Made by a program: the position numbers and the translations under genes | Assembly: GCA_016699935.1 (NCBI GenBank) | Contig: CP064992.1 | Span: 1,050,001-1,082,000 of the forward strand | DNA: 32,000 nt | Reading direction: 5' to 3' | Source: Candidatus Saccharimonadota bacterium | Lineage (GTDB): Bacteria > Patescibacteriota > Saccharimonadia > Saccharimonadales > UBA4665 | Notes under the pieces: model-generated | Databases searched by the model: none | Told to the model about the DNA's origin: nothing | The model's input: the letters and a program-made list of their open reading frames with translations, nothing else | Part shown: positions 6,543 to 26,500 of the stretch, in pieces | Numbering within the stretch: the first letter of the stretch is position 1 | Layout of the letters: the number at the start of each line of letters is the position of its first letter

Positions 6543-6770
6543 GTATGGATGTTATGATAGCATAATCGCTATAGCAAATACATAGCCATGTCCCTTGAAA
6601 TGGCAAGCTAAACAGGCTATCCTAGCATAGTTACACTAACAAGGTCGTGGCGGTCACTGCGAAGCAGCGCCAGTAATAATCGTAGACATTCGTCTACCAG
6701 TCCGCCAGAAACAATATGACAGTCCGAAATGACGGTAAACTACATAGCACATTTCACTCTAGACAGTCAC

Positions 6771-6854
6771 GCGGATGTGGCGGAATGGTAGACGCGCTAG
6801 TTTCAGGTACTAGTGAGGCAACTCGTGGAGGTTCAAGTCCTCTCATCCGCACCA
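6771..6854 (+). tRNA. tRNA-Leu(CAG), CCA encoded
   Basis: GCGGATGTGGCGGAATGGTAGACGCGCTAGTTTCAGGTACTAGTGAGGCAACTCGTGGAGGTTCAAGTCCTCTCATCCGCACCA. Anticodon loop TTCAGGT. Confidence 0.9.
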
Positions 6855-6884
6855 CTGCAAATAACCAGAATCATACATTGTTAC

Positions 6885-8674
6885 TTACTTAGGAATTTGG
6901 CCTTGTTTTACTGCCCAGTTTGTTACCGAATAGTAGCGGTCGGCGTCAGTATTGATGCTGTGCTCATTCAAGCCCTGCACGACTCCTCTGGATAGGTAAA
7001 GAATTTTTGGTTGGAATAATCCGACCGCTGGAGCATCATCTTGCCATGCCTTGAGAAATGCTTTGTATTTCAAAGCTCGAACCACTGGATCCTGCCGAGT
7101 CCGACCGCCTTCTAGGGCCGAATCTGCCACAGCCGACTTGTATTCAGAGAAGTTCAAGCGATTACTGCTCCGCGGGTCCGCCTGGGTGCTACTCCAATAC
7201 GCGTAAACATCAGGGTCGGGACCTATGGAAACTGTATATAACAATGCTGAAAAAGCGTGTGCTTCTACAGAACTTTGAAAGTCAGTGGATTGTTGCAGCG
7301 CAGCCTGTACATCGACCCCGACACCCCGCCACTGCTCTTTCAATTTTCGCAGTATTTGCTGATTTTCCGGTGTCTCTTCGGCAACAACTATGATGCTAAG
7401 GGGCTGATTACTTTTTACCCTAATACCATCTTTTCCGTTCACCCAACCTGCTTGCTCGAGGATTGTATTGGCAGCGGCTGGGTTGTAGGCGGGTTGATTA
7501 TACTCTTTCGCGTAGCCTGTCTGCGCAACAAGGAACGGCTGATGCACAAGGCGCAAATCATCGCTTAGAGCGCTTTTAATGCTCTGTTTGTCGGTTGCGA
7601 GAACAAGCGCCCGCCGAACTGCCCCATCGCTCAATGCGCCTTCTGAAGTTTTAAAGAATACCATGGTGGCGGCTGTTGCATTAAACCGATAGGTATAGAG
7701 CGAGCTGTCATTGTCAAGCACATCAGGCAATCGTTTTAGTCCAGCAATTCCTTCGATTGACCGCTTTTTGTAAGCTGAAACCATCTTTTCTTCATCGTCA
7801 TAGACATGCAAAATGAAGCCATCTAGTTTCGGGCGTCCGGTGTTGTACTCTTCATATGCCTTAAGCGACAAAAGCGTCGAGGCTTCGCCGGAGCCAGCCG
7901 CACTACCAAATTGCAACGACCCCACATGAACGGACCCGCACCAACTGGTTCCGTCGTATTGAAGCTGCTCGTACGTAGCTGCGAAACCGGTACCTTTTGA
8001 AGCAAATGTGCGGGAATGATCCCAGTAGTCAAACTGTGCGGAAAAGCAGTCAGCGCACTCGGTAACCCAAAGATAACCGTTTGTGGGTTTGGCGCAGTGA
8101 TCACTATGCCTTGCCAACTACTCAATAGAGGTGAGCGTGTGTCAGGGTTCTGGATAGTGCGGAAGGTATAGACAACATCTGCGCTCGTGAGCGGAGCACC
8201 ATCATGCCACCTCAGACCCGGCTTTAAAGTAAATGTATACTGCTTACCAGAATCATCGGCCTTATATTCTTTTGCGAGATCTCCGATTAGCTGATTGTTT
8301 CCGTCGTACTTCAGTAGACCAGCAAATAGCAGCCGTGACGCCGCTGTATCAACCGCTCCGGTAGCATAAATGGGGTTTGCATTACTATATGTTCCGAGCA
8401 TCCCCTCGTTATACACTCCACCTGGCACTGGTCCAGATTTGAGATAGTAGCTACTGAGATTGACAGCTTGAAGGAACGTAAGCGCACTGATGGTCACGAC
8501 AAGAAACAGCCATCCGCCAACGAATCGTTTCACGTCAAGTAGTCGTTCCAGCCTGTCTATAAAGTGCGAGTCGAATCCAGCTTCAGCGCGAGATGCGACT
8601 GATCCAACCTGTCGCTGGTGGCGCCGGAAAGATCGTCTAATTCTTAATTTGGTTGCATGATTCATGAATGACAT
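6885..8674 (-). pseudogene. ABC transporter substrate-binding protein, peptide/nickel type (SBP family 5), N-terminal membrane anchor; one frameshift
   Basis: Fragments 7823..8674 (N-terminal; TM segment FVGGWLFLVVTISALTFL; ...FTLKPGLRWHDGAPLTSADVVYTF) and 6885..8117 join near 7925..7935 (EPVGAGPFMW then GSLQFGSAAGSGEAST...). Confidence 0.75.
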
Positions 8675-8700
8675 GATGCTCTGTTCCCCACCAGATACGC

Positions 8701-8916
8701 TTAACCAATGATGATACCGAGCAAAATTGCAAGAATAAACACAAGCGCAGACACAATAGTCAGTTGATAAATTGTTTTGTCAGTTCCCCGCCGTTCGGTA
8801 TTTACCTCGCCACTACTACCGATACCTGCACCCAAAGACGCACCCCTCGTCTGTACTAAAATAAGCAGCGTCATAAAAAGCATCGATATAATTGCGACAT
8901 AGTTATATATACTCAT
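8701..8916 (-). CDS. secG: preprotein translocase subunit SecG
   Basis: Intact 71-aa ORF with two TM helices flanking a Gly-rich loop (LILVQTRGASLGAGIGSSGE...), which is the typical SecG layout. Confidence 0.7.
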   Translation of the reverse strand: MSIYNYVAIISMLFMTLLILVQTRGASLGAGIGSSGEVNTERRGTDKTIYQLTIVSALVFILAILLGIIIG

Positions 8917-8925
8917 AGTTTTTCT

Positions 8926-8934
8926 AGTATACCA
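8926..8934 (-). promoter_or_regulatory. extended -10 element (TGgTATACT) 9 nt upstream of the secG ATG
   Basis: The reverse complement of 8926..8934 reads TGGTATACT. The ATG is at 8916..8914, so the 5' UTR would be only about 2 nt. Confidence 0.3.
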
Positions 8935-9034
8935 CGAATTTCTGGCCAGCCAGTCTCGCAGTATTCAGCAAACGAGATTCCACACCCTCGGCCAAAATAG
9001 CAGTTACGTAACAAGTGTTCGCACTGCACGGGTC

Positions 9035-9416
9035 TCACGAACTTCGGTCCAAAATAGCTGACACAAGGTAGTTTACGACGCCTATAATCAGTCCCGTTAC
9101 GATCGCAACGCTGAAGCTTTCAATATGAAGGGGCTCATATAGCTTACTTGCCAGATAGACGGTTGCGCCGTTGATGACTAGCATAAAAAGACCCAGCGTC
9201 AATAATATTGCAGGCAGGCTCAGCACGACAAGCAGGGGTTTGATAAATGAATTGATTAGTGCCAATATTGCGCCGGCAAACACAACTACAGCAAAACGGC
9301 TCTGATAATCAACCGAGCCACGCAGCAGACCGGCCGCAATCCAAAGCCCAAGGCTACATACAAACCACCGTAAAAAGAAATGAATACACGAAACTCTGGT
9401 TTTTATATGCCGTCAT
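9035..9416 (-). pseudogene. phage-holin-IV / DUF360-type 4-TM membrane protein; two frameshifts in the N-terminal part
   Basis: ORF 9035..9283 (FAGAILALINSFIKPLLVVLSLPAILLTLGLFMLVINGATVYL...) is the conserved core. The upstream frames read MTAYKNQSFVYSFLF / YGGLYVALGFGL / AAGLLRGSVDYQSRFAVVV, starting at ATG 9416. Confidence 0.55.
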
Positions 9417-9427
9417 TGTTATAAGCA

Positions 9428-13361: not shown

Positions 13362-13369
<8 letters not shown>
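12383..13369 (+). CDS. multi-pass membrane protein with a basic N-terminal tail, function unknown
   Basis: Intact 328-aa ORF with a Lys/Arg/Pro-rich first 60 aa followed by about 6 hydrophobic helices. Its stop overlaps the ligA start (ATGGCTAG). Confidence 0.65.
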
Positions 13370-15374
<2,005 letters not shown>

Positions 15375-15378
<4 letters not shown>

Positions 15379-18023: not shown

Positions 18024-18044
18024 TTCGTGGCAGGTGCTCTTGGA
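18024..18044. repeat. degenerate copy of the tRNA-Trp 3' end and flank (18 of 21 positions); candidate distal att remnant
   Basis: TTCGTGGCAGGtGCtCtTGGA at 18024..18044 versus TTCGTGGCAGGGGCACGTGGA at 20605..20625. The first 11 nt are identical. Confidence 0.4.
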
Positions 18045-18185
18045 CGATTACCGAACTTATTGTGATGTAATAGGTATTTATGAGATGAAGGAATACGATG
18101 AAGAATATCTATCATGGAGAGATGGTTAGATTTGTACTGCTAAGAAATACTGCGTAAGAGTATAATTCAATGTATAAGAGGAAGT

Positions 18186-18791
18186 ATGGCGTTACCGAAG
18201 TATAAAGAAGTAAAAGCAATCATCGAGAAGAGAGTTTCACGGCGTTTTCACGATGTCTCCAGACTGGAGATGCGGCCATTCAACGAATCGCCGAGCTTTA
18301 TTCAACATGCAGGAAAACTTTAATACACAACACCCTAGACAACCAAGAATCTAAAAGACTATAAGTTACAAAATGGCCGAGGCTAAACATATAATTGAAC
18401 ACTCAAAAATACCAGATATGACACCTGAGGAAGTGTTTGTGATAGTCGACGAAATGGCTAAGGAAATAGGTAGCCAGATGGCTAAATATCAATTTGAGGT
18501 TCTTAATAAGACAATTGAGGAGACGGGCAATAGTGTTGACGCAAAAGGCCAAAAGCTTAGTCCTGAATTATTTCTGGAGACGATCAGTATGATGAGTATT
18601 TCCTTTGATAAGGATGGAAATCCGAAGCTACCAACAATTGTAATCAGCCCAAAGACAGCCGACCAATGGAAACGCGTAATGTCTGGAAGCGGAAGCAGAC
18701 CCAGAACACAAGAAAAAAATTTGATGCGATTATAGCGCAGAAAAAGAAGGATTTCGATGCAGAGCAAGCTAGTAGAAAACTGGTTGACTAA
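18186..18791 (+). pseudogene. hypothetical protein (about 200 aa), first gene of the islet cassette; about 4 frameshifts
   Basis: GAGGA RBS followed by ATG 18186. The frames read MALPKYKEVKAIIEKRV.. / ..FSRCLQTGDAAIQRIAELYSTCRKTLIHNTLDNQESK / KTISYK-MAEAKHIIEHS...ADQWKRVMS (ORF 18373..18735) / EAEADPEHKKK / FDAIIAQKKKDFDAEQASRKLVD*, with the stop at 18789..18791. Shifts fall at the A4 run at 18353..18356, GG at 18685..18686 and the A7 run at 18713..18719. The N-terminal joins are the least certain. Confidence 0.4.
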
Positions 18792-20337
18792 CGCCGGCGA
18801 ACTCACATACACAGCACCCTTCGTTCAGTTGCTTATTAACGAAGGGTACACGGTTTTGCAAGCAAAAGGTGGTCCCACAGAACAGGGCAAGGATATTATT
18901 GCGCGAGACACAAATGGGAATATTCACTGTTATCAGCTCAAACATGGGAGTATTGGCAGTAGCGATTGGCAGCAATATCGGGCTCAATTAGACGACCTTA
19001 CCGAAATTCCACCAAAACACCCTTCGATTCCAGCGAATTTGACTTCATGGCAGTGTCATCTAGTCACTAATGGTGATATTACTGGTCAAACATCAATTAC
19101 TATTGTCGATTATTCTAAGGCCAGAAGTAAAAAAGGTAATATGGCACTGCAAACGACCTCAAAAGAGGAGCTGTTACGACGATTCACCGACTCATTTGGC
19201 AGATTTTTCCCGATAGAGCCAAATGATATACGTGTATTCTTCGAGCTATTCTGTGATGACGGTGATAACACTCTAAAACGAAGTGAATTCAAATTGCTTT
19301 TTGAACATTACCTCAGCGAATTTGACGTTAAGAGATCAAAGCAAAAAAAGCTAGAATCTATCCAAGCTGCACCGATTCTCACAAGTTACCTGCTAACCAA
19401 TAAATATGCTAAAGAAAACTACACTGCTTTAATAGATGCATGGGTACTAATGCTGCTGACAATACTGCACTACGCAGCTAAATGGTCACTCGATGAAAAG
19501 AAATACGCTGCAACAGAAAGCCTAATACTTGACGAGATAGACAGACTAATTTCTTGTCTATTTAATGATGTCGCAACAGATGACAATAATCTGGTAGATG
19601 CATCCTATGGTCTGTTCTCCGAACCGATAATGACATACAAGCTAAGGTGCGCGGAATTGCTTGGCTATATATCTGCAGCAGTCAATTATTCCTCCTTGTC
19701 GGGTCGAGCTTTGCCTGTTGTGGACGTAGTTTTGGCGGAGAAAATGGCGCAAATGCACCAGAAAAAGATCGTGATTAGTGAGGCAGGATTATCATTCCAA
19801 TTCAACTATATCCTGGCATCTGCCATACATGGCAAGGAAACAGCTACTGTCGCCGAACTTATCAGGCTGGTGGATGGTGTACTATCCGCGCATGTTGATG
19901 AGGGAGATGGTCTTTTAAGCCCTTACTACACTACCGAACAAGCTGTGGCAAATATGCTTGATGTGGGTGAACCGATTGACGAGACGTTTAATAATCGGAG
20001 TTACATGCTTTGGCCTGCAGTACTATTACTCGCCAAATACGACCAACGTGACTTCTTGAATGATCGATGGCAGGTTCTTTCCGAAATCTCAATGGAGGAG
20101 ATTGTTGCACATGACTCAAATGATCTGCTACTTTGGAGGATCAAAAATGCAGACCTGTTAGACACTTTTCCAAACTCAGCGCAATCATGGGCAAGCCTAA
20201 GAGCGATAGCGACTAAGTCGTATGACAACGATATACCGGCTATCTTACTCAAACGCAAATATCTCATCCCGCTTTGGGTGTTAGCGATGCCGCACAGACT
20301 AACACCAAATGTCATATTGTCACTGGTGAATAAGTAA
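18757..20337 (+). CDS. Mrr-like PD-(D/E)xK nuclease N-terminal domain fused to an uncharacterised, mostly helical region of about 400 aa
   Basis: Intact 526-aa ORF. The N-terminus FVQLLINEGYTVLQAKGGPTEQGKDIIARDTNGNIHCYQLKHG...HLVTNGDIT matches the Mrr_cat layout (core D in GKDIIA, QxK in YQLK). I saw no P-loop or other known motif downstream. The start lies 35 nt inside the preceding gene. Confidence 0.6.
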   Translation: MQSKLVENWLTNAGELTYTAPFVQLLINEGYTVLQAKGGPTEQGKDIIARDTNGNIHCYQLKHGSIGSSDWQQYRAQLDDLTEIPPKHPSIPANLTSWQCHLVTNGDITGQTSITIVDYSKARSKKGNMALQTTSKEELLRRFTDSFGRFFPIEPNDIRVFFELFCDDGDNTLKRSEFKLLFEHYLSEFDVKRSKQKKLESIQAAPILTSYLLTNKYAKENYTALIDAWVLMLLTILHYAAKWSLDEKKYAATESLILDEIDRLISCLFNDVATDDNNLVDASYGLFSEPIMTYKLRCAELLGYISAAVNYSSLSGRALPVVDVVLAEKMAQMHQKKIVISEAGLSFQFNYILASAIHGKETATVAELIRLVDGVLSAHVDEGDGLLSPYYTTEQAVANMLDVGEPIDETFNNRSYMLWPAVLLLAKYDQRDFLNDRWQVLSEISMEEIVAHDSNDLLLWRIKNADLLDTFPNSAQSWASLRAIATKSYDNDIPAILLKRKYLIPLWVLAMPHRLTPNVILSLVNK

Positions 20338-20426: not shown

Positions 20427-20445
20427 TGGCAGGGGCACGTGGAAT
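20427..20445. repeat. perfect 19-bp direct repeat of the tRNA-Trp 3' end (att-like)
   Basis: TGGCAGGGGCACGTGGAAT at 20427..20445 is identical to 20609..20627, which covers the CCA, the acceptor 3' strand and part of the T arm on the antisense strand. Confidence 0.7.
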
Positions 20446-20581
20446 ACTTTGTATAGCCTTGCATTGTGCTCGGAACAAGATTCCTGCGCGCAATGCTTCG
20501 TTATCGAACACACGATCTACGCATCTTGCTTTGCAATCTGCTAGATCGTGGTTCGACTCAGCATACCTATAACACGAAAAA

Positions 20582-20606
20582 AGACCAGCAGATGCTGATC
20601 TTTCTT
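20582..20606. terminator. weak hairpin flanked by A6 and a T-rich tract, just 3' of tRNA-Trp
   Basis: AAAAAA-GACCAGCA-GA-TGCTGATC-TTTCTT. The stem has one mismatch and a tight loop. Confidence 0.3.
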
Positions 20607-20608
20607 CG

Positions 20609-20683
20609 TGGCAGGGGCACGTGGAATTGAACCACGATCTAAGGTTTTGGAGACCTTTATACTGACCGTTGTACTATGCCCCT
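20609..20683 (-). tRNA. tRNA-Trp(CCA), CCA encoded
   Basis: Reverse complement: AGGGGCATAGTACAACGGTCAGTATAAAGGTCTCCAAAACCTTAGATCGTGGTTCAATTCCACGTGCCCCTGCCA. Acceptor AGGGGCA/TGCCCCT, anticodon loop CTCCAAA. Confidence 0.9.
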
Positions 20684-22375: not shown

Positions 22376-22526
22376 TTTACTCTAATGACCAGTGCACGAG
22401 CACCAAAACCCAATCAATGACTAAATACCCGAATTTTCGAATGAACTCCCTGTGGTTCTCAGGATATTTGGTTACTGCTTGGTCATTCAGGTACAGCAAT
22501 TTGGGCTTTTACAGAGGAGTATCTGT

Positions 22527-23914
22527 ATGAATGATTATCTTGATAGGCCAATCATCCTTATCATATTCGGTATAACCGGAGACTTGTCGCAGCGGAAGCT
22601 CTTGCCCGCTCTTTATCACCTCATCAAGCACAGACAGTTGCCTGAAAACGTCACCATCATTGGTGTAAGCCGAAAGAAAATTCCTGTCTCAGAGGTGTAC
22701 GAGGATCTCAAGACTAAAATTCACGGCGAAGATTACGACCGAGTCGTCGTGGAGCAACTGCACGATGCCACGCGGATGGTGCAGGTGGATCTCGATAACC
22801 AAGATGATTATACGCGGCTTCTTGAAAAACTGCGTGTGATTTCTGATGAGCTGGGCTCAGGAGTTAGCCGACTGTATTACCTTTCGATCCCGTCACAAGC
22901 CTTTGTGAACGTTGTACATCACCTAGGCGAGACAAACCACCATGAGCCATTCGGGCAGGACGGCGAGCGGCCGCGACTACTGGTAGAGAAACCGTTTGGC
23001 TACGATGTAGCGTCAGCTGAAACGCTCGTGAGGGCGGCTGACGAGCATTTTGGCGAACAGCAAACATTCCGTATAGACCATTATCTTGCGAAAGAAACGG
23101 CTCAAAATATATTAACCTTTCGGTTTCAAAACCCGTTATTCCAGTCCATTTGGAATACACGGCACATCGAAAGTATCCAGATTGTGGCGCACGAAACCAT
23201 CGGCATAGAGAAGCGGTCGGTATTTTACGAACAAACAGGAGCCTTGCGTGATATCTTGCAAAGTCACCTCTTGCAACTGCTTGCGCTCATCACCATGGAA
23301 AAGCCTGCGGCGCTTGAGAGCCATGATATCCATAAAGCCAAGCTTCGCCTTCTTGAGAGATCGACACAATAACGCCTGAATCAGTTGAAACACTAGCGGT
23401 TCGAGGGCAATACGACAGCTACAAAACAGAGGTAGATAATCCTCATAGTCATGTTGAAACATTCGCGAGATTACACCTGAACATCGATAACGAGCAGTGG
23501 CGCGGCGTAAAAGTTACTATAGAAACCGGGAAAGCCCTTCATGAAAAATGTACCGAGATTATTGTGCGGTTTCGCGCTAACGAAGACGCACCTGGCACAA
23601 ACACACTGACATTCCGCGTGCAACCGCAAGAAGGCATTACCTTATCATTGCAGGCAAAGCGGCCAGGGCTTGCAAAAGAAACAGAAACCGTACGGATGGA
23701 TTTTGACTACGATCGAGCCTTTTATGGCTTGGCTGGGGAGGCTTACGAACGTGTTATCATCGATGCCGTGCGCGGTGACCAGTCACTCTTTGCCACCGCT
23801 CAAGAAGTACTAACTTCGTGGCGAATCGTTGAAAACGTCTTGCAAGCGTGGAAAGCAGACGGCAAAAATCTTCGTCTGTACCCTGTTGGCTCACCTGCTC
23901 ATGAAATTTTGTAA
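22527..23914 (+). pseudogene. zwf: glucose-6-phosphate 1-dehydrogenase; one frameshift
   Basis: AGAGGAG RBS followed by ATG 22527: MNDYLDRPIILIIFGITGDLSQRKLLPALYHL, RIDHYLAKE. A frame change near 23350..23356 (LRLLE / IDTITPESVETLAVRGQYDSYK...ETFARLHLNIDNEQWRGVKVTIETGKAL) continues through ORF 23564..23914. Confidence 0.85.
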
Positions 23915-24036: not shown

Positions 24037-25280
24037 ATGAGGGTATTAATGCTTGGGTGGGAATTACCACCACATCATACCGGGGGGATGGGCGTAGTCT
24101 GTTACCAGATGTGCAAGCAATTAGCACGGACCGGTGCACAGATAGAGTTCGTATTGCCATACACCGCCGATTTTTCACACATTGACTTTATGAAAATAAA
24201 CCCTGCTCTTCCTGATAACGTCGAGGAGGTCATTGGTTCGCGTGCTGGTAGTACGTATGACAGTCAGTATTTTGAATACGTACTACGTGATGGCTCGACT
24301 CGTGGCGCCGCCATGAATGAGCACCAAGCAAACTATCTGCAATACGTATCACGACTTGTCGAGCTTGGGGACTATGATGTTATTCATGCCCACGACTGGT
24401 TAACCTTTAGAGCGGCACTGGCGGCAAAGCAAGCCACTGGGCTGCCCTTGTTTGTACACATCCACTCGACTGAGTATGATCGTTCTGGGGGCAACAATGG
24501 GAATCCGTTGTTCGCGAGATTGAGTACATTGGACTACACCTTGCCGACAAAATTTTTGCAGTAAGCCAGGCTACCAAAGATACGATTGTCCGTGAATATG
24601 GCATCTCGCCCGATAAAATTGAAGTTGTACACAACGCTATGGAGTTTCAGGCGCATGAGCTCTACGAAGATACCTCAGACAATGCCTTTCGATATTTGAC
24701 TCGCATGCAACAAGCCGGTTACGGAGTAGTTGTTAGTGCTGGCCGTCTTACCATCCAGAAAGGACTGCCTCACTTGCTCAAAGCGTTTCGTATTGTGGTT
24801 GATGAGCGGCCTCAGAGCCTCTTGCTCATCGTTGGCCCGGGCGAACAGTACCATGAACTGATTGAGCTTTCAGCCGAACTTGGCCTCAGTGGCAATGTAA
24901 TTTTTACTGGGCATCTCAACGGTACGGGCAAACAGTGGCGTGACGCGTTTCGAGTAGGCAACCTGTTTGTTATGCCCAGCGTCTCTGAACCCTTTGGCTT
25001 AACACCGTTTGAGGCACTCGCGCAGCATACGCCAGCACTGATAAGTAAGCAGACAGGTGCAAGTGAAATCTTACACAGTGTTCTCAAGGTAGATTACTGG
25101 GACACCCAAGAAATGGCCAATAAGATTGTCGCCGTTCTGGGTCACAAAGAGCTGGAAGAAACTTTGGCAGAAGAAGGACACAGTGAACTCATGAAACAGA
25201 GCTGGCAACGCCCAGTTGAGACCGTGCTCGAGCACTACCATCGACACGCCAGTCAGCACAGGGAGCTTGCATATGTCTGA
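24037..25280 (+). pseudogene. glycosyltransferase (GT4/GT5-like, glycogen/alpha-glucan synthase type); one frameshift
   Basis: MRVLMLGWELPPHHTGGMGVVCYQMCKQLA.. Fragments 24037..24564 and 24639..25280 join near 24510 (GGNNGNPL / VREIEYIGLHLADKIFAVSQATKDTIVREYGI). The C-terminal part reads PSVSEPFGLTPFEAL. Confidence 0.75.
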
Positions 25281-26500
25281 ACAGAGCACCGACAAGCGGG
25301 CAATCGTATTATACCTACACGTACACCAACCGTTCCGCGTACGCCACTACACTATTTTCGATGCTGGTCGCAACCACGATTACTTTGACGCGCCAAGTGG
25401 TAGCCGTGAAAACAATGCCGATATTGTACGCAAAGTAGCGCACAAATCGTACGTGCCGACAAACGAACGCCTTATGCGCATGATTGAGCACAATCCGAAG
25501 TTTAAGCTTTCGCTCTCCATAACTGGCACCATCCTTGAGCAACTTGAGACCTATGCACCTGACGTCTTAAAAAGCTTTCAAGATCTGGTAGCGACTGGGC
25601 GTGTCGAGATTGTCGGTGAAACATACCACCATTCTGCTCGCGTTTTTCTACAACCGCGATGAGTTTGAGACCCAAGTACAAATGCACCGTGATATCGTTC
25701 GAAGGCTCTTTGGTGTTGAGACAACCGCGTTTCGAAATACCGAACTGAGTTACAATAATGATCTTGCCTATTGGGCAGACCAAGCTGGCTACAAGGCTAT
25801 ACTGAGCGAAGGCTGGGATCCAGTGCTTGGCTGGCGTAGCCCGAATTTCCTCTACCGTCCGGCTCACACCGAAAATGTGAAACTTCTCACGAAAAACTAC
25901 AAGCTCAGCGATGACATTGCGTTCCGGTTTAGTAACAAAGACTGGGAAGAATACCCAATGACCGTAGATAAGTTTATGAACTGGACAAAAGACTCCTGGG
26001 ATCAACCACTCCTCAACCTGTTCATGGATTATGAAACATTCGGCGAGCACCAGTGGGAAGATAGCGGCATATTCGACTTTTTGGAGCACCTACCTAAGGC
26101 CTGGCTTGAGAAAGAGGCTCACACCTTTATGACAGTGTCTGAAGCGGCAGACGCGTTTGAAGCCAAAGACACCGTGGACTGTCCGCAAACGGTTACCTGG
26201 GCAGACACCGAACGCGACTTGACCGCTTGGCTTGGCAACAAGATGCAACAAGGCGCCATCGCGAGTCTCTACGGATTGGCTGGACCGATGATGCAAAGTG
26301 GCGACTTTGCCCTCATCGAAGATTGGCGCAAGCTACAGACAAGCGACCATTTCTACTACATGTGCACGAAATACTTCAGTGATGGCGACGTCCACGCCTA
26401 CTTTAGCCCGTACGAAAGTCCGTATGAGGCATACATTGCATTCATAAATGCTTACCACGACCTAAAGTTCCGACTCACCGAGAAAGGTCTGCCGGTCTGA
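25273..26500 (+). pseudogene. glycoside hydrolase family 57 protein (alpha-amylase / alpha-glucan-processing type); one frameshift
   Basis: ATG 25273 overlaps the upstream stop (ATGTCTGA): MSEQSTDKRAIVLYLHVHQPFR... The frame changes near 25635 (VEIVGETYHHS / LLAFFYNRDEFETQVQMH), then ...FMDYETFGEHQW... Confidence 0.75.

Follow-up and report, generated by a model that had tools for sequence, protein, structure and literature searches.

Results

The subject of this analysis is a pair of overlapping genes in a 32,000-nucleotide (nt) stretch of a Candidatus Saccharimonadota genome (GenBank assembly GCA_016699935.1, contig CP064992.1, positions 1,050,001 to 1,082,000 of the forward strand), which we call the window and whose numbering is used for all window coordinates below. 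The downstream gene (B) encodes a protein of 526 amino acids (aa) composed of a predicted N-terminal nuclease head of the Mrr type and a helical C-terminal domain, and the upstream gene (A) encodes a 201-aa partner. We put the probability that the 526-aa open reading frame (ORF) acts as effector within a conflict (defence) cassette of two genes, horizontally mobile and without a name so far, at roughly 0.55, slightly better than even. The contexts in which the pair is found suggest that its function is probably defence, and that the two genes probably form an undescribed module directed against phages or plasmids. The features of the cassette in the window are as follows.

18186..18791, + strand: partner gene (A), 606 nt, 201 aa after repair
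18757..18791, + strand: dual-coded overlap of 35 nt; the partner ends in ...AEQASRKLVD* and the nuclease begins with MQSKLVENWLT
18757..20337, + strand: nuclease gene (B), 526 aa plus stop, ATG start, intact
18757..19161, + strand: predicted Mrr-type PD-(D/E)xK nuclease head, residues ~1-135
18799-18801, + strand: putative catalytic codon of E15
18892-18894, + strand: putative catalytic codon of D46
18934-18942, + strand: segment that contains the putative catalytic codons of Q60 and K62
19162..20334, + strand: orphan C-terminal domain of ~390 aa, residues ~136-526

An Mrr-type nuclease head

A first-pass annotation, made from the letters of this DNA alone, had singled out the 526-aa gene as an intact ORF, the longest of the window, and both statements hold: the gene is uninterrupted from its ATG start, and its product is 100% identical to the NCBI hypothetical protein IPL68_06955 from a Candidatus Saccharibacteria metagenome-assembled genome (MAG). 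Current annotation gives the gene only as a 'hypothetical protein'. The same first-pass reading had proposed an Mrr-like head on the strength of four motif segments, FVQLLINEGYTVL, GKDIIARD, IHCYQLKHG and HLVTNGDIT, and all four coincide with the conserved core of the domain. In an alignment of 72 diverse family members, which are 22-46% identical to the query, residues W9, E15, L26, E42, G44, D46, Q60, K62, P152, P512 and R514 are invariant in all 72, and K45 is nearly so. An AF2 model of the protein, built from a 27-sequence alignment (mean pLDDT 88.9, pTM 0.89), shows an α-β-β-β-α-β core in residues 16-104, with helices at 16-28 and 68-83 and strands at 32-35, 47-50, 56-62 and 99-104. The FVQLLINEGYTVL segment makes up helix α1 and strand β1, G44, K45 and D46 of GKDIIARD stand at the start of β2, Q60 and K62 of IHCYQLKHG lie in β3, and HLVTNGDIT is β4. 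With E15 at the start of helix α1, the D46...Q60-L61-K62 arrangement corresponds to the D...QxK form of the PD-(D/E)xK geometry.

Structural comparisons point in the same direction. Among PDB entries, Foldseek ranks the Lamassu nuclease LmuA (9hr5) first and matches the head to NucS/EndoMS with a probability of 0.95-0.99 over ~120 columns; EcoO109I is also among the matches. Against BFVD, it returns phage and giant-virus proteins annotated as 'Restriction endonuclease' or 'type IV Mrr domain' with a probability of 1.00 over 130-160 columns. At the level of sequence, the window protein taken alone gives nothing significant in Pfam, NCBIfam or PDB sequences (no Mrr_cat match at E<=1), and its sole PADLOC match is a weak one to LmuA over residues 23-78 (E=0.004, 15.2 bits). 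A family member encoded on a Rhodococcus plasmid, on the other hand, scores 22.8 bits against Pfam Mrr_cat (PF04471), above the gathering threshold of 21 bits, and aligns with the family profile at an hhalign probability of 99.6% (E=1.7e-23). When the 72 members are scanned singly, Mrr_cat is matched by one (E=2.8e-4). By these sequence comparisons, Mrr_cat membership of the window protein is transitive, through the Rhodococcus member, and not direct. Because the invariant catalytic residues, the αβββαβ structure, the Foldseek matches and the transitive Mrr_cat homology all agree, sequence and model together confirm the head as a PD-(D/E)xK nuclease domain of the Mrr type, probably a divergent member of Mrr_cat, for which nuclease activity is predicted.

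An orphan C-terminal domain

Residues ~136-526 are almost wholly helical in a confident part of the AF2 model, with a small β-hairpin at 445-470. Conserved positions include P152, N221, W229, R297, E342, Y390, W438, W460, W478 and the motif P512-H513-R514. The first-pass annotation had found no recognisable signature in this part of the protein, and our searches bear this out in every library, fold search included: there is no significant match in Pfam or PADLOC with the 72 members scanned one by one, none in NCBIfam or among PDB and BFVD folds (Foldseek), and nothing significant when the 72-member family profile is compared with PDB sequences.

Within this domain, FFELFCDDGDNTLKRSEFKLLF (19225-19305, residues 157-183) resembles an EF-hand helix-loop-helix. 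We set aside the marginal profile matches to EF-hand_6 (E=0.12) and calbindin (E=0.4), over residues 157-191, as noise: G169 is invariant and D170 nearly invariant across the family, but the other calcium-ligand positions are unconserved. Judged from these sequence features, the segment is probably not a calcium site.

The head and the domain that follows it bear directly on the possibility that the protein is a constitutive restriction endonuclease, either type IV (modification-dependent) or specific for a sequence or structure, in which the C-terminal domain and the partner recognise DNA, as opposed to sensing infection, and no cognate methylase is needed. By its transitive homology, the head can be placed in Mrr_cat, a lineage with a type IV enzyme as its founding member, and it shares with Mrr and Mrr_cat both the PD-(D/E)xK subfamily fold and the D...QxK-type active-site pattern. 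In line with such an enzyme, no methyltransferase was found to be conserved beside the cassette, other restriction-modification (R-M) genes are often its neighbours, and the Prokaryotic Genome Annotation Pipeline labels the Rhodococcus plasmid member 'restriction endonuclease'. Mrr itself, however, is built of an N-terminal winged helix followed by a C-terminal catalytic domain. The order of domains in the cassette protein is the opposite of this: its head is N-terminal, is fused to the orphan 390-aa domain and is paired with a 201-aa partner. Pfam and Foldseek (against PDB and BFVD) revealed no winged helix in the window protein, Foldseek detected no known DNA-binding fold in the 390-aa domain or in the partner, and an obligate, translationally coupled subunit of 200 aa would be unusual for a type IV enzyme. 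We consider this explanation unlikely.

Two genes as one unit

We searched 65 genome loci that encode the nuclease with a hidden Markov model (HMM) of the partner. In 65/65, the partner gene immediately precedes the nuclease gene on the same strand; the co-occurrence of homologues of both genes, which the first-pass annotation had proposed to examine, is complete over these loci. The stop codon of the partner falls exactly 35 nt inside the nuclease gene in 57 of the 65 loci, and a canonical start is present at the equivalent position in 50. Conservation of the dual-coded motif GAAAAYTGGYTGACTAR extends from Saccharibacteria to Bathyarchaeia, and a GGAGG-like (GGA-rich, Shine-Dalgarno-like) stretch is found just upstream. 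In the remaining eight loci (L038, L047, L048, L053, L055, L056, L067 and L071; L numbers designate individual loci), a spacer of 34-148 nt replaces the overlap. These form a subclade of non-Saccharibacteria Patescibacteria plus one Thermodesulfobacteriota MAG and, since this subclade lost the overlap, the 35-nt arrangement is not strictly required. Pairwise identities of the two proteins correlate across 820 locus pairs (r=0.82), and there is no third conserved gene beside the cassette among the surveyed loci. The two genes are an obligate, co-evolving cassette, and the geometry of their overlap implies translational coupling.

Two short elements upstream of the partner start codon could serve its expression.

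18161-18166, + strand: TATAAT, putative cassette promoter element (tentative)
18176-18184, + strand: AAGAGGAAG, putative expression signal before the partner ATG at 18186

A TATAAT occurs at a similar upstream distance in all three aligned relatives; a consensus promoter scan did not call this region, where a good -35 element is lacking. A promoter and terminator scan, and RNA folding downstream of the ORF, gave nothing above shuffled controls.

The partner gene and its interruptions

The partner is not visible in the window as one frame. What appears instead is a set of three fragments, the ORFs 18186-18323 (45 aa), 18373-18735 (120 aa) and 18666-18791 (41 aa), and tblastn with the Nocardia partner shows the gene spread over three frames with a total length of 606 nt, equal to that of Nocardia. 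DNA alignment with three intact relatives places four indels: an A lost at 18313 and another at 18352 (each A5 to A4), a G gained at 18685 and an A gained at 18713 (A6 to A7). Repair yields a stop-free protein of 201 aa, ~89% identical to its closest relative, and database homologues are of the same size (21/21 are 200-201 aa). In Nocardia and in an acidobacterial contig, a gene of 201-210 aa likewise precedes the nuclease homologue with an overlap of ~35 nt. Therefore, the small overlapping partner of the first-pass annotation stands as to its overlap, which is 35 nt, and falls as to its smallness, which comes from a 201-aa gene split by four indels. Annotation renders the gene as a 120-aa fragment, a mis-annotation.

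Several housekeeping genes of the window are split by frameshifts in the same way, in agreement with the earlier description of the window as riddled with indels. They include ligA, the gene for NAD-dependent DNA ligase (13362-14219 and 14602-15378), zwf, the gene for glucose-6-phosphate dehydrogenase (22452-23372 and 23564-23914), and the genes for glycogen synthase and a GH57 protein, each in two pieces (24037-25280, 25216-26500). Because ligA is essential, these splits are almost certainly assembly (homopolymer) errors, a caution that applies to all gene calls in the window, and since ligA, zwf and other housekeeping genes are split alike, the partner indels are very probably sequencing or assembly errors as well. 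With four indels in 606 nt, the partner seems more densely affected than other parts of the window, and the 1581-nt nuclease gene is free of indels; the partner may have undergone real decay in this strain. We rejected programmed frameshifting, as all relatives are unbroken. As a side observation on ligA, its middle is missing from any long ORF, which leaves it in at least two pieces. Elsewhere in the family, nuclease genes are truncated at L054, L062, L069 and L070, and partner genes are split at L027, L051, L063, L064, L069, L070 and L072; many of these loci come from long-read MAG collections, in which decay and assembly error are indistinguishable.

Searches of Pfam, PADLOC and PDB returned no relative of the partner. 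Residues E42, G43 and R197 are invariant, and the C-terminal RKLVD is nearly so. Its best PDB fold hit, a phage procapsid protein (E=2.9), was rejected as meaningless.

A smaller gene that overlaps a downstream nuclease gene, in strict pairing, is also what one would expect of a toxin-antitoxin (TA) or addiction module that stabilises mobile elements, with B as a nuclease toxin, A as its antitoxin and phage defence as a by-product. The frequent presence of the cassette on plasmids, on elements resembling integrative and conjugative elements and on recombinase-bearing islands fits such a module, as do solitary insertions among housekeeping genes. However, proteins of 201 and 526 aa far exceed typical type II TA components, the conserved extra 390-aa domain of B would be needless for a simple toxin, and A has no recognisable DNA-binding or antitoxin fold (helix-turn-helix, ribbon-helix-helix and AbrB folds were not found in Pfam, PADLOC, PDB or fold searches). 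Orphan copies of A or B are seen in 0/65 loci and, were the frameshifts in A real, they would leave an intact toxin, an outcome expected to be lethal. We regard a TA module as improbable.

Distribution and phylogeny

An exhaustive phmmer search recovered representatives of 815 clusters (at 50% identity) with E<=1e-3, a number that falls to 220 with E<=1e-30, nearly all of them ~520-550 aa long and matching end to end. Counted over named genomes, the family is present in at least 15 phyla of Bacteria and Archaea. It occurs in Saccharibacteria and other Patescibacteria, Acidobacteriota, Chloroflexota, Planctomycetota, Actinomycetota (Nocardia, Actinospica, Jidongwangia and Solirubrobacteraceae), Bacteroidota, Rhodothermota, Clostridia, Nitrospirota, Thermodesulfobacteriota, Pseudomonadota, Poribacteria, Eisenbacteria and Dormiibacterota, and in the archaeal Bathyarchaeia. 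It was not found in any phage genome or viral contig searched.

The gene tree, a neighbour-joining tree without bootstrap and as such indicative only, conflicts with taxonomy. A Solirubrobacteraceae copy is nested within Acidobacteriota, and copies from Saccharibacteria and Actinomycetota, the latter from Nocardia, Actinospica and Jidongwangia, interleave in one clade (the window, L001, L010, L011, L016, L018, L019 and L061). Copies from non-Saccharibacteria Patescibacteria form a separate clade, with 23-27% identity to the query. Cultured Saccharibacteria live as epibionts of Actinomycetota, and the interleaving may reflect gene exchange between host and epibiont. From these sequence relationships, we conclude that the cassette is horizontally mobile and accessory.

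Such a distribution speaks strongly against a vertically inherited housekeeping DNA-repair nuclease similar to NucS/EndoMS. The alignment of the head with NucS/EndoMS at high probability would favour it; what aligns, though, is ~120 residues of generic core, and the family is patchily distributed, its gene tree is incongruent and its synteny is not conserved. Distribution and context effectively refute this explanation, to which we give almost no weight. Both findings that could have overturned the first-pass proposal thus came out in its favour: the head matches the PD-(D/E)xK fold, and the gene is not part of a syntenic housekeeping family.

Genomic neighbourhoods

There is no conserved synteny around the cassette, even among Saccharibacteria, and the neighbours differ in every case. 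Defence and mobile-element genes recur among them. In one Saccharibacteria locus, genes for a serine recombinase, Fic, RadC, a type I R-M system and SocA adjoin the cassette; another is a full restriction island, in which an EcoRI-type methylase, GmrSD-HNH, Fic and Mrr/NA-iREase are encoded; and in a contig of soil Saccharibacteria, the cassette directly follows the gene for a type IV secretion system (T4SS) coupling protein, in the same orientation. A reverse transcriptase gene is also found among the Saccharibacteria neighbours, and other loci of this group have only plain metabolic or transport genes around the cassette. Beyond the Saccharibacteria, one locus places the cassette beside an Mrr_cat gene and ArdA, and a MOBP megaplasmid of Rhodococcus carries it among genes for an OLD-type endonuclease, an exonuclease and a DEAD helicase. 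In Pyrinomonadaceae (L002-L004, positions 6606-9422), a complete BilA/BilB/BilD set for ubiquitin-like conjugation and a 1139-aa UvrD-PDDEXK helicase-nuclease are encoded immediately upstream, and an ArdC-like gene and a large AAA_34/ResIII protein are found downstream; this stretch is a dense defence or mobile-element island.

PADLOC analysis of 127 neighbour proteins from 54 loci gave strong matches to DISARM DrmA and DrmD, REase_I, MTase_II, MADS mad2, SoFic and BrxH. As a raw count, seven of the 11 contexts for which source annotation or precomputed Pfam matches were available have a defence or mobile-element gene no more than about three genes away from the cassette. Together with the obligate pairing and the patchy spread across both domains, these neighbourhoods uphold the first-pass impression of features suggestive of defence, the function itself being read from context.

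Some of the same contexts are open to a different explanation, in which the nuclease serves the mobile elements themselves, for conjugative establishment, entry exclusion or competition between elements. The T4SS coupling-protein gene, the anti-restriction genes ArdA and ArdC, and the MOBP plasmid are of the kind that this explanation calls for. Yet in most loci the two nearest genes on each side include none for transfer, no such gene is conserved with the cassette, and many copies reside in chromosomal defence islands, all of which makes a mobile-element function quite improbable.

At L075, the closest relative of the window cassette, a 446-aa reverse transcriptase (RVT_1; positions 6619-7959) is encoded 41 nt upstream on the same strand. 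Candidate identities are a group II intron, a retron or a DRT-type defence reverse transcriptase, and it could be a functionally linked gene.

Comparison with known systems

The Lamassu effector, whose PD-(D/E)xK nuclease is N-terminal, is kept as a monomer by its partners by way of its C-terminal domain, and oligomerisation activates it (bioRxiv 10.1101/2025.03.14.643221). In the cassette nuclease, as in LmuA (9hr5 of Salmonella enterica; DdmA in Vibrio cholerae), the PD-(D/E)xK nuclease is at the N-terminus and a helical domain at the C-terminus, and the LmuA profile is weakly matched by 2 of the 72 members. Unlike Lamassu, the cassette has as its partner a 200-aa protein without an ATPase motif, and SMC-like LmuB or LmuC genes are neither conserved beside the cassette in the 65 loci nor present in the window. 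Three SMC_N matches near cassettes are accompanied by equal counts of ABC_tran and ABC_membrane and are probably ABC transporters. We rejected membership in Lamassu, given the absence of LmuB and LmuC and the marginal similarity to LmuA.

Olokun is a two-gene system in which OloB, a PD-(D/E)xK nuclease with an N-terminal helical domain, is complexed with the non-enzymatic, adaptin-like OloA (bioRxiv 10.1101/2025.07.10.664194). The likeness lies in the number of genes and in the fusion of a PD-(D/E)xK nuclease to a helical domain. In contrast to Olokun, the helical domain of the cassette nuclease is C-terminal, and the cassette partner has 200 aa where OloA is large and adaptin-like. OloB is weakly matched by 8 of the 72 members (best E=2.8e-4), and the window protein is not one of these. 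With the opposite domain order, an adaptin-like OloA and marginal HMM matches, we rejected membership in Olokun as well; the cassette is set apart by the description of Olokun itself.

As for NucS/EndoMS, no other structure superposes as well on the head as a rigid body (~120 columns, rmsd ~5 Å, probability up to 0.99), but it has only the generic nuclease core in common with the cassette protein, and architecture, partner, distribution and context are unrelated. No other named system was matched in PADLOC 2.0, and literature searches found none with this architecture. Therefore, the earlier statement that no named system fits still stands, the PADLOC 2.0 matches to LmuA and OloB being weak and limited to the head. 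On sequence comparison, the cassette is a candidate nuclease-effector defence module, a known type, with novel, putatively regulatory parts.

A proposed mechanism and its weighing

If the two genes are a defence cassette, its operation could be as follows. Genes A and B would be co-transcribed and translationally coupled via the 35-nt overlap and, because they are coupled through a conserved overlap, the two proteins would probably be produced at a constant ratio and associate in a complex. The head of B would be the DNA-cutting effector, with D46, Q60-x-K62 and the helix residue E15 at its presumed active site and DNA as its likely target, while the 390-aa helical domain of B and protein A might together provide a regulatory or sensing platform. 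By analogy with Lamassu LmuA and other PD-(D/E)xK defence nucleases, we infer a resting state in which protein A and the C-terminal domain keep the head as an inactive monomer. An invasion signal, for example foreign DNA or a protein encoded by a phage or plasmid, would then release or rearrange the complex, allowing the heads to pair or oligomerise and to cut DNA, so that the invader is destroyed or the infection aborted.

Several observations weigh against this interpretation and keep our confidence in it modest. In four of the 11 contexts (the window itself, L008, L080 and L081), neither defence genes nor mobile-element genes are neighbours. LmuA is only weakly similar, the PADLOC match (E=0.004) covering the head only and the Foldseek match to 9hr5 reaching E=0.07 with a TM score of 0.19-0.24. 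The partner model, mostly long helices, is of low confidence (pLDDT 64), and the partner frame is interrupted in the window; if the interruption is real, the local copy of the cassette is defective. Finally, the second catalytic acid of the head is replaced by Gln (Q60) in place of Asp or Glu. In this respect, Gln at the second acid position is typical of Mrr-type enzymes.

Should the defence interpretation be right, a widespread two-gene family would join the catalogue of prokaryotic immune systems, and the C-terminal domain and the partner would be two new folds or families that regulate a classical restriction-type nuclease. The family is especially frequent where defence is poorly charted, namely in Saccharibacteria, other Patescibacteria, Acidobacteriota, Chloroflexota and Bathyarchaeia. 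The interleaving of Saccharibacteria and Actinomycetota copies hints at gene flow between epibionts and the phylum of their hosts, which bears on the biology of the candidate phyla radiation. More tentatively, and at somewhat less than even odds, the cassette would be a prokaryote-wide immune system (represented in at least 15 phyla of Bacteria and Archaea, and common in the ultra-small Patescibacteria), with sensing and regulatory parts that have no relatives in sequence or structure and a new form of control over a restriction-type nuclease, exchanged between Saccharibacteria epibionts and Actinomycetota hosts. Predicted nuclease-based defence cassettes are, at the same time, a crowded category.

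Insertion context in the window

Two features on the minus strand downstream of the nuclease gene may bear on how the cassette came to lie where it does.

20427..20445, - strand: exact 19-nt copy of the tRNA-Trp 3' end (ATTCCACGTGCCCCTGCCA, minus strand), resembling an attachment (att) site
20609..20683, - strand: tRNA-Trp (CCA), found by ARAGORN and by Rfam (tRNA, 65.8 bits), 271 nt downstream of the nuclease gene

The 19-nt repeat is located between the cassette and the tRNA gene, 163 nt beyond the latter, in which the original occupies 20609-20627. A degenerate third copy (14/19 nt) at 18028-18046, upstream of the cassette, is marginally above chance. The tRNA-Trp gene is a probable integration hotspot bordering the cassette, and the repeats at it are consistent with what integration or excision, once or repeatedly, would leave behind as scars. 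The ORFs and domains inspected around the cassette include no integrase. For this reason, the tRNA-flanked islet that had been proposed is retained in part, with one tRNA gene, an att-like repeat and a dip in GC content in its favour and the missing integrase on the other side. The dip is visible across 17.5-20.5 kb, where the GC fraction is 0.38-0.42 versus 0.45-0.50 in the flanks. A search for an empty site led from the pgl flank to a single, uninformative metagenome locus, and the closest relatives of the HAD hydrolase (68% identity) share no synteny with the window. A terminator-like hairpin follows the tRNA-Trp gene on the minus strand, and a 49-nt imperfect inverted repeat (20542-20590 versus 20593-20641) includes a segment that resembles a T-arm.

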